Assembly (NCBI GenBank): GCA_951406725.2
Contig: OX597828.1
Coordinates: 58,652,001-58,716,000, forward strand
Direction of reading: 5' to 3'
Length of the DNA: 64,000 nucleotides
Source of the DNA: Octopus vulgaris
Taxonomy: Eukaryota
The notes beneath the pieces were generated by a model, which was given only the letters and a program-made list of their open reading frames with translations, was not told the origin of the DNA and searched no databases. Of this stretch, positions 3,104 to 54,080 are shown piece by piece; the first letter of the stretch is position 1; the number at the start of each line of letters is the position of its first letter. Made by a program: the position numbers and the translations under genes.

Positions 3104-3315
3104 AACGGGAAGCTTTATGAAAATAAACAAAAGACGAAGGCAGGTGGAATACAAACAAACAAATGTATTAGTATGGCGTTCAGGAATATAAATAAAACAA
3201 GTCTTTTACGTTTCGAGCCTACGCTCTTCGACAGAAAGATTCACAGAAAAGAAACACGGAGAGAAACAAGGAGAGAAAAAAAATGTGTGCAGAAGCTAGC
3301 GAATCAACATGGCGA
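3104..3315 (-). mobile_element. Short non-autonomous element with minimal type I hammerhead ribozyme (Penelope pLTR / retrozyme-like)
   Basis: Minus strand 3239-3202 reads UCUUU-CUGUCGA-A-GAGC-GUAG-GCUC-GAAA-CGUA-AAAGA. Inserted in (TA)n. Homologous copies at 43466, 52978 and 53922. Confidence 0.75.
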
Positions 3316-22496: not shown

Positions 22497-23173
22497 TTAA
22501 GAAGTTTCAAAATTAGAGTAGAAATAAAACAAGAACAGAAAATTCAAAGAAAGTGGAATTTTGATGATGTGAAAAATTTGTAGAAAATATTATGCAAAAT
22601 ATGTAAATAAAATTCTTGAAAGATCCACATATTTTGTAATCAATTACTGAAACTATATATAGCATTGCTGTTTAACTAAGAATTACACTCCTTAAACACA
22701 AGGTTTTGGGTTCAGTCCCACTGTATGGAAATTTAGGCAAGTATTATTTACTATTGCCTTAGGTTGACTAAGGCTTTGTGAGTGAATTTGGTACATAGAA
22801 ACTAAAATCGCAGAATTAACTCTACTTATTCTTTTATTCTTTTATTTGTTTCAGTCATTTGACTGTGGCCATGCTGCAGCACTGCCTTTAGTCGAATAAA
22901 TCGACCCCAGGACTTACATCCAGATGTAAAAGTTTTATAATCAATGATTGCTTATAAACTTTACATTTGGATGGACTCATATTAAACTCTGTTGGACTTT
23001 TGGATTTCACTCAAAGGATATTGGAATATTACACATATATACCATTATGCCTATAAAACGGATTTATGAACTCAATACCCATACATATCTTACATCTATT
23101 TTCTTTCCTCCACCTCACTCTCTATTTTGTATCACATCTAAACTAACTATGACTTAATTTTTCCTCTCACACC

Positions 23174-23228
23174 GTCTCCGATGAAGGGATATTATTATTA
23201 ATTAATATCCTAGAAACAGCTGTAAGAC
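23174..23228 (+). ncRNA. Minimal type I hammerhead ribozyme in a pLTR-like repeat (about 22915-23310)
   Basis: GUCU-CCGAUGA-AG-GGAUAUU...AAUAUCC-UA-GAAAC-AGCU-GUA-AGAC: helix I GUCU/AGAC, long helix II, palindromic helix III (ACAGCUGU), GUA cleavage triplet. Confidence 0.7.
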
Positions 23229-23591
23229 CTTCTATCTATAAATGCTCTAATATCTATACAGCCTTGGTTTTTTTTTATCTCATTATGCAAAAAATTCATA
23301 TATATTCATATATGTATATATATATATCAGTTATATAATATATATGTATATAAGAAGTTTCAAAATTAGAGCAGAAATGAAACAAGAACAGAAAATTCAA
23401 ATACAGGTCAAGACATTGGTAATCCTCATCAGTTATCAGCGAGAAGAGCTTTACATTTTCATGCCATTAACGATAATATTGTTCACTTTTGGTGGCATCA
23501 TATATATATACATGTGTGTGTGTGTGTGAGTGTGTGTGTGTACGTACGTGTGTGTGTGTGTGTGTCTGTGTGTACACACACCTACACACAT

Positions 23592-37324: not shown

Positions 37325-38594
37325 GTAAGTTAATGTTTTATATATTTATTATCTAGAAAGATCTATGTTCGTTCTGACCAAGATTTTTGGGAGACTCGAT
37401 TTTGTTTTTATATTGTCGCTTCCTGGATTTCCTTTCTTTCTCTTATTTATATGCATTGCCGTTGTTTGGAACATGAACTTAATATTTAGCCAATTCTAAT
37501 ACATTCCTATGTACCCAACATATCAAATCTTCATCTCTTTGTAAATGTTTCTCCTGGAAAAAAAAAACAACAAACAAAAAACTAATTTACTCTCCTCCAA
37601 AGTTCATAAGGAAACTGATAAAGTTTCTTTAATCTTTATATCTATTGCGAAATATACATTAGACGGGATTCTTAACAAGAAAATATTGTTTCTGCCAGGG
37701 AAACAGTTGACGACTGCTGTAAAGTCCCATGTTTACAAACAGTAGTGGAAAGCAAGTGCGCGCACGAAAAGGTTTATTATTGCGCGATAGATTTTATTTA
37801 CGATCGTTGGCGATAAATTTGCAGCGAATTATACGATTATTTCATCGATCTCTACCTTTCCTTTTCTCTGCTAAATTCTCTTCTCCGTTTTGCTATTCAC
37901 TTGTCGATTTCATTTTGTTGTCATTTGAAATAGAAATCAAAACAAAATTTACCTTTAAACATTTAAAAAAAATATATGTCAGCTAAATCTGCGTTAAAAA
38001 AGAAAACGACTAATTGGAAAGCTTTAGTGATTTATTAATATTTATCTGTATTGCTTTGTGGTCCAATATGTCAACGAAGTTTCAATTTGAAGTTAATCTT
38101 GCTCTGATAATTGACATAAATTTCCATTTACTTCCACCCTTTTTCTGTTTATTCGGTTGTAATTCGCTGCTTCTCCCCCTCCCCTCTTTTGCCTCTCTCT
38201 ACGACTTCACTCATTTCATTTCTCTCTCTCTCTCTCTCTCATCTTCATACTTGAGTCCTCCCTCTCTTTGCCATCGAATATCTTTTACTCTCTCTCTCTC
38301 TCTCTCCATCTCAGATATTCTATTTAAGCTTGGATTCCATTCCATTTCTTGGCGGTAGTTTTGTAAATTTTGAAAAGTCACGTTTATTCCATTTCAGATT
38401 GAAGTAACAGCTAAGTTTATGCGTATAAACACACACACACACACATATAAATAAATATACTAATACATCTGTTTGTTGTCTACACCACCTGTCTTCGTTT
38501 TTTGTGAATTCTCTCTCTATATATAAATATATGTGTGTACATAATATATATATATGTATGCCGAAAGATTGCCTATGTGTGTATATATACATAG

Positions 38595-43465: not shown

Positions 43466-43652
43466 TAGGGAGAGTTTACGAAAATACAAAAGACGAAGAC
43501 AGGTGGTGAACAAAACAAACAGATGTATTAGTATAACGCTCAGGAATAGAAAAAGTCTTTTATGTTTCGAGCCTATGCTCTTCTACAGAAAGGGATACAG
43601 AAAAAACAAAGAGAACAAAATGTGTATAGTGGCTAACGATCTATCATGGCGA
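43466..43652 (-). mobile_element. Hammerhead-bearing short element, copy 2
   Basis: CUUU-CUGUAGA-A-GAGC-AUAG-GCUC-GAAA-CAUA-AAAG at about 43592-43557; helix III damaged by a CpG-type change. Confidence 0.72.
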
Positions 43653-52977: not shown

Positions 52978-53088
52978 CAACACTCAGGAAGTGAAAAAGT
53001 CTTACGTTTCGAGCCTACACTCTTCCACAGAAAGAAACAAGGAGAGAAAAAAAAATGTGTGTAGTGGCTACTGATCTATCATGGCGAC
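52978..53088 (-). mobile_element. Hammerhead-bearing short element, copy 3 (partial)
   Basis: CUGUGGA-A-GAGU-GUAG-GCUC-GAAA-CGUA at about 53034-53000; helix I shortened. Confidence 0.68.
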
Positions 53089-53123
<35 letters not shown>

Positions 53124-53921: not shown

Positions 53922-54080
53922 AGGAGAATTTACGGGAAAAACAAAAGACGAAGACAGGTGGTGTTCAAAACAAACAGATGTATTAGTATAACGCTCAGGA
54001 ATAGGAAAAGTCTTTTACGTTTCGAGCCTATGCTCTTCTACAGAAAGGGACACAGAAAAAACAAGGAGAGAAAAAAAAAT
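53922..54080 (-). mobile_element. Hammerhead-bearing short element, copy 4
   Basis: CUUU-CUGUAGA-A-GAGC-AUAG-GCUC-GAAA-CGUA-AAAG at about 54047-54012. Confidence 0.72.

Follow-up and report, generated by a model that had tools for sequence, protein, structure and literature searches.

A hammerhead motif with U at core position 6 conserved in the truncated ends of a Penelope-like retrotransposon family of Octopus vulgaris

The dispersed repeats of about 200 bp in a 64-kb stretch of Octopus vulgaris DNA (referred to as the window) contain a hammerhead motif in which U occupies core position 6 in place of the usual A. Judging from longer copies elsewhere in the genome, each of these repeats is the 3' end of a Neptune-type Penelope-like retrotransposon, left by 5' truncation. 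Because A6 is found in sister families, U6 is fixed in this family and the constrained positions are otherwise invariant, U6 appears to be a derived and old state within a motif that is still under selection. The reading favored here, to which we assign a probability of roughly 0.55, is that the U6 motif is likely kept as a putative slow, dimer-dependent self-cleaving ribozyme in the truncated Penelope ends, with U6 retained through at least ten subfamilies.

The window copies and the motifs that they carry are listed in Table 1. The sequence-only reading of this DNA had reported four minus-strand copies, all with U6 and with C, A, G and A at position 7, together with a plus-strand 3' piece at about 38455-38520 that lacks a hammerhead; all of these were recovered at those places. 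The damage it described in helix III of copy 2, the shortened helix I of copy 3 and the G-U pair it noted in one helix II were likewise seen when positions were checked. Copy 3 lacks 2 nt from the 3' arm of helix I, and a U-G pair tops its helix II. The proposed minimal type I layout also held in full (helices I and II, a base after A9, the G10.1-C11.1 pair, palindromic 15.2-16.2 and H at position 17). In copy 1, helices I and II are each of 4 bp, an extra A follows A9 and helix III is palindromic; re-derivation of the predicted cut site placed it, as before, between 3207 and 3206. Aligned over 215 nt with the final 212 nt of an intact element (L309), this copy shows 91.6% identity; its identity to the 39 other best genome matches is 97-98%.

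Table 1. Copies of the U6 family, their hammerhead motifs and a further core-like motif in the 64-kb window.
Feature	Positions	Strand	Description
Copy 1	3104..3315	-	Pseudo-LTR, 5'-truncated 3' end of Penelope-like element; youngest subfamily; TA repeat at end
Copy 1 hammerhead, minimal type I	3203..3238	-	C3 at 3234, U6 at 3231, C7
Core-like motif	23170-23230	+	C at position 4, long AT-rich stem; possibly another Penelope end
Copy 5	38456..38520	+	Very short 3' end, starting downstream of the hammerhead and hence without a core
Copy 2	43466..43652	-	A7 subfamily, truncated 3' end; C3 at 43588
Copy 2 hammerhead	43557-43592	-	U6; G16.2 changed to A, a CpG-type change
Copy 3	52978..53089	-	Both ends truncated; G7 type; C3 at 53030; U6
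Copy 4	53922..54080	-	A7 subfamily, truncated 3' end; C3 at 54043
Copy 4 hammerhead	54012-54047	-	U6

An Rfam scan of the window with E values up to 10 returned no hammerhead among the best 150 of 153 matches listed, and its microRNA matches were all sub-threshold and all on simple repeats. No reverse transcriptase (RT) or endonuclease fragment was detected in the window itself. A tRNA-derived SINE head was considered and rejected because no tRNA was found in the window. Throughout, the window is dense in short interspersed repeats and in TA, CA and TATG microsatellites.

Across the genome, the copies share a common 3' end followed by a TA repeat, the element inserting into TA repeats, and their 5' ends vary, some reaching the edge of the 1.5-kb flanks. 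Upstream of the hammerhead, longer copies encode a reverse transcriptase, a CX4CX2C linker and a GIY-YIG endonuclease, for which a first look gave 17,285 candidates in the genome (93-100% identity among the 150 that were scored). Three of the 12 long loci fetched were full-length (L308, L309 and L312), with units of 4.48-4.58 kb preceded by partial copies of 1337 bp (97.6% identity), 638 bp (98.4%) and 593 bp (92.6%), respectively. The open frames of L308 (1181 codons) and L309 (1119 codons, or 1079 residues counted from methionine) are uninterrupted, and both pseudo-LTRs of each of these two elements carry the U6 hammerhead. The RVT_1 match lies 31.8 bits above the cut-off; the GIY-YIG match is weak (E 0.007), with the motif visible. 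As in EN+ Penelope-like elements, a single ORF combines the RT with a C-terminal GIY-YIG domain, and pseudo-LTRs arise from partial tandems together with inverted truncated copies and frequent 5' truncation; Penelope-typical clusters of inverted and partial-tandem pseudo-LTRs occur at L127 (5975-7134), L044 and L069/L070. The copies are therefore truncated ends of an autonomous RT and GIY-YIG element of up to 4.5 kb, and the earlier description of a stand-alone mobile RNA of about 200 bp has to be given up. The non-autonomous, fixed-length tandem units without a coding parent that define non-LTR retrozymes are not what was found here, where 5' ends are staggered and the parent is coding.

Placement in the Neptune clade is suggested by the linker and the RT N-terminus, which match published Neptune rows by eye. 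The CX4CX2C linker begins at residue 876, about 40 residues ahead of the endonuclease core, and by an eye comparison of layout it has the full spacing to GIY-YIG of the CX2-5CxxC linker that distinguishes Neptune, the linker being absent in Poseidon and its spacing reduced in Nematis (PMC8557442). Homologues at 42-59% identity came without clade names. Additionally, the octopus element resembles the Neptune clade in its single ORF, its DKG motif, its RT-CX4CX2C-GIY-YIG order with CCHH, its TA-repeat targeting, its partial tandems and its inverted 5'-truncated ends, and, compared by eye, the N-terminus of its RT is very like the Neptune1_Ap row (PMC8557442). It departs from that account in one respect, as canonical hammerheads are there called universal outside Naiad and Chlamys, whereas the U6 family is non-canonical (PMC8557442).

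The fixation of U6 was evaluated by genome-wide searches of 2.8 Gb in 227 contigs with an exact 27-nt core pattern. Among 17,912 matches, 17,224 (96.2%) carried U6, as against 429 with C6, 204 with A6 and 55 with G6; the reversed control pattern gave 0 matches genome-wide, and the motif is therefore not a product of chance. The counts of 17,224 and 20,661 are both lower bounds on copy number. A U4-to-A change, two bases away from position 6, was found 117 times as a control, so the 204 A6 matches lie within twofold of what point mutation provides. In 158 copies found without core selection, from which 30 loci picked by likeness to copy 1 were excluded unless refound by another route, position 6 was U in 151, C in 3 and A in 4, two of the A6 rows being extensions of A6-picked loci. 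The core was visible in 23 of 30 loci picked by their endonuclease, and U6 was present in all 23. Within assembled contigs from four runs of four organisms, no other letter reached 3% at position 6. Combined, these results bear out the earlier claim that U6 is fixed in the family: the genome-wide consensus, which could have proved to be A6, is U6, and the core thereby differs from the A6 core expected of a minimal Penelope hammerhead.

The oldest layers of the family were also examined for an ancestral A6 or C6 state. Counted by eye, position 6 in the oldest layers was U in 79, C in 14, A in 6 and G in 1 of the first 100 of 594 matches, and a second sample of the oldest layer (the first 100 of 156) gave 81, 13, 5 and 1. 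With copies in these layers diverging by 7-16% and a background T-to-C rate of 8.5%, the minority letters could reflect either such a state or point mutation; the A6 copies had no clear private mutations in common.

The rest of the motif was compared among ten subfamily consensuses, from which the copies differ by about 2-16% within their own subfamily and whose flanks differ from one another by up to 38% (nine subfamilies). None of 30 constrained hammerhead positions and none of four loop II positions varied, whereas 49 of 95 ungapped flank columns did (Fisher p 3.7e-8 for hammerhead against flanks, with columns treated as independent, which they are not); this invariance is to be read with the copy finder in mind, which allowed at most 5 core mismatches, the oldest subfamilies being fetched in part with core-fixing patterns. 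The possibility that conservation would not exceed that of the flanks was thus tested and is contradicted. Only two of the 36 motif positions are variable: position 7, which shows all four bases across the subfamilies and is free as had been claimed, and position 17, where A, U and C occur and never G. The published minimal-hammerhead consensus leaves the same two positions free (PMC4209133). In the contigs of the four runs, variation likewise falls at 7 and 17, read depth peaks on the hammerhead and loose ends lie at both helix I borders; variable sites number 2 of 36 inside the motif and 27 of 255 outside, a share that is no test by itself.

Within the family, no compensatory base change was found in any of the ten U6 source lineages. 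An apparent older U6 lineage with a compensated helix II was dropped, its paired variants proving sporadic once helix II was left free in sampling the oldest layer. Between U6 and A6 families, the helix sequences differ and the pairing is kept (by eye). A downstream repeat of the helix II strand was tried as a switch and rejected, since no covariation with helix II was seen by eye in other families.

The derived state of U6 rests on comparison with other families, which account for 14,196 canonical hammerhead matches in the genome. The nearest sister found shares its helix II stem with the U6 family and differs in the loop and in helix I; its endonuclease is 51-59% identical to that of the U6 family over 37-99 residues. 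Position 6 is A in 96 and U in 0 of the first 100 of its 3,482 matches, and A in 91 of the first 100 of 197 matches to a more distant group. A core was seen in two of seven metagenome relatives, both canonical. The published minimal-hammerhead consensus also has A6, as do 44 of the 44 alignment rows examined (PMC4209133). With a calibration in which a distance of 0.2 corresponds to 56 million years (PMC13282606), we infer from the 16% copy divergence that U6 is some tens of millions of years old.

Two canonical A6 families are abundant (L159-L186, L380-L445): one lies next to TAA repeats and has a helix II of 6 bp, and the other is the sister of the U6 family. An apparent chimera (L042:1440-1640) takes its 5' flank and the start of an A6 core from the sister and, from a joint inside the hammerhead onward, its helix II and 3' flank from the U6 family. 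A related family with a U4C hammerhead (L121:7900-7945 and genome-wide, 320 exact matches) has C4 in 71 and T in 28 of the first 100 of the 320, the T probably reflecting CpG decay.

The size and end structure of the copies were assessed in 90 copies picked by a 3'-flank motif, two pairs of which are possibly duplicated insertions. Their 5' starts lie downstream of the core in 17, within 49 nt upstream in 12, at 50-90 nt in 41, at 91-111 nt in 7 and beyond 149 nt in 13. The earlier size of about 200 bp is explained by the 41 copies starting in the 50-90-nt zone, but it does not stand as a family length, as copies reach 4.5 kb. Since 30 of 34 A6 sister copies start in the same zone (by a measure capped by the partner copy), this size is a property of the lineage and not of U6; the zone may be where the RT stops or where transcription begins within the pseudo-LTR. 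Because 73 of the 90 copies span the core, it appears that the template there had mostly stayed intact or been religated. The 5' junctions next to TA repeats, read by eye in about 35 loci among the first 100 of 265 matches, scatter from about -24 to +6; about 4 of the 35 fall at the cut site, which shows no peak, and the upstream pseudo-LTRs of full-length copies start 0.6-1.3 kb upstream and not at the cut.

The U6 hammerhead probably still folds, and it would be expected to cut slowly at best. In the predicted fold of a 40-nt monomer, U6 pairs with A15.1 at a probability of 0.43-0.98, against 0 for A6, and the resulting hairpin zips the two core strands with three or four consecutive pairs. 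In a longer context this hairpin is kept only for the young U6-U7 form (0.41-0.63) and is lost in three of the four U6 copies folded; the dimer energy computation ignored non-canonical pairs and was uninformative. A natural A6C hammerhead cleaves slowly yet detectably, at a rate under 0.1 per minute and with a preference for Mn2+ (PMC3088659; PMC7151607), and in a saturation screen every single mutant of the U-turn region was low in activity (PMC9901934). Minimal hammerheads of Penelope elements need to be multimeric to cleave, and even then do so weakly (PMC4209133); copying by Penelope enzymes starts at the 3' end and yields truncated products (PMC4209133; PMC6765202).

Under the favored mechanism, the element's own enzyme would prime at the fixed 3' end and would usually stop early, the commonest stop lying 50-90 nt upstream of the core. 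The template hammerhead would usually be uncut or religated, with most copies spanning the core. In a tandem transcript, the palindromic helix III would let two hammerheads pair, with occasional cutting, while U6 would lower the rate and favor the off-state hairpin in the monomer. The high intracellular salt expected of a marine animal could relax the U6 core, as has been argued for saltern variants.

The slow, dimer-dependent ribozyme is placed first and a non-cleaving recognition fold second because A6C is slow, U-turn mutants are low in activity, a U6 hairpin is predicted and the junctions show no peak. Recognition, with a U6 hammerhead that no longer usefully cleaves and whose fold or hairpin signals to the RT-endonuclease or a host factor, is an explanation that we hold tentatively and at less than even odds. 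It accords with the strongly deleterious effect of position-6 changes in vitro (PMC7151607; PMC9901934; PMC3088659), with the consecutive core-strand pairs that U6 provides in the predicted monomer, with the lack of a 5'-end peak at the cut site and with the spread of another family in this genome with U4C; loop II, invariant in the U6 family and variable in the A6 sisters, also fits recognition of sequence, and non-cleaving roles are left room in PMC4209133. The hairpin itself fits the conservation pattern less well: position 7 faces A14 in it, yet five of the ten subfamilies have a base other than U there; C3 and U16.1, which it leaves unpaired, are invariant in all ten; and it disappears in the longer context for three of the four U6 copies folded. 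Moreover, the sole variable positions (2 of 36) are those left free by hammerhead chemistry. It is possible, if doubtful, that A6U switched the hammerhead off tens of millions of years ago and that the entire fold has since been retained because it, or a U6 switch between an off-hairpin and an on-dimer, is read by the element's enzyme.

Two further explanations concern the conserved block and the short copies. The 36-nt block could be conserved as DNA or primary sequence, such as an internal promoter, a splice signal or a termination signal, with the hammerhead shape a relic; Penelope pseudo-LTRs do contain a promoter and start site (PMC8557442; PMC6765202), 5' ends accumulate 50-90 nt upstream of the core and covariation is lacking within the U6 family. 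We regard this as improbable, for conservation ends at the helix I borders and spares exactly positions 7 and 17, and the sisters keep the geometry with other helix and loop sequences. Still less credible, and in our judgment very unlikely, is that the copies of about 200 bp form an independent non-autonomous element (SINE-like or a retrozyme) derived from a short pseudo-LTR transcript or circle, even though 41 of 90 copies start within one 40-nt zone, an upstream GC-rich motif is present in 30 copies, of which 22 end no more than about 12 nt from it, and one contig joint in run X16 jumps back 176 nt. The 5' ends are staggered, with the 13 longest of the 90 extending into the coding region, the short copies share diagnostic bases with the long copies of their own subfamily, the A6 sister has the same start zone, and the fetched loci show Penelope-type inverted and partial-tandem ends only, without head-to-tail unit arrays.

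Relative to known systems, the octopus motif resembles the hammerheads of PMC4209133 in its pseudo-LTR site, short helix I, extra base after A9, G10.1-C11.1 pair, loopless palindromic helix III, U-rich 5' and AU-rich 3' context and mostly single truncated copies. It differs from them in that A6 is there part of the consensus and required by the descriptor, U3-A8 being one core variant reported for minimal metazoan motifs, and in that the U6 family is homogeneous, unlike the variable families of that report (PMC4209133). A natural position-6 change is shared with the A6C hammerhead of phage Bcep176, which is a full ribozyme in one phage sequence, whereas U6 is the source state of at least 17,000 copies of the minimal dimer type (PMC3088659; PMC7151607). 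Short type I hammerhead repeats in animal genomes are also known as non-LTR retrozymes (PMC7229834); those are non-autonomous, unlike the octopus copies, which end a coding element and have staggered 5' ends. Hammerheads of Penelope elements, the Neptune clade and a variant at position 6 have thus each been described before, and A6U fixed in a large family appears to be the new part. Lunse et al. 2017 reportedly describes many Penelope hammerhead variants. A full-text literature search, with that article and parts of the PMC4209133 supplements outside its scope, returned no large family with a natural, fixed A6U hammerhead. Hammerheads are also absent from the main text of a 2026 Octopus repeat annotation.

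The role of the hammerhead in endonuclease-bearing Penelope elements is stated as unclear in PMC8557442, and nature provides, in the U6 family, a way to ask if cutting is required of Penelope hammerheads. Here a core base that is normally invariant has been replaced in the sources of a very successful, apparently still intact family, with the rest apparently kept by selection. If A6U is a tolerated natural core, hammerhead chemistry is wider than thought and descriptor searches miss whole families; if cutting is dispensable, the fold has another job. Were the recognition or switch proposal true, nuclease activity would come second to recognition or switching as the role of Penelope hammerheads, and a genome holding both U6 and A6 sister families would constitute a natural experiment. 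Ready controls exist in the A6 sister family and in the 204 point variants with A6.

Hammerhead-like motifs were also observed in two other repeats. A second young Penelope-like element (L122:3747-8482; G000:C6, minus strand) lies directly upstream of a truncated U6 element; it has a 775-codon RT-endonuclease frame, an upstream 454-codon frame and 465-bp repeats that are 100% identical, and its repeat carries a hammerhead-like motif with C at position 4 and without the G10.1-C11.1 pair. Six copies of an unrelated repeat (L504-L509) contain a canonical core-like motif and, about 45 nt away, another with U6; the order of the two is not that of type I, and these may be rearranged hammerheads.
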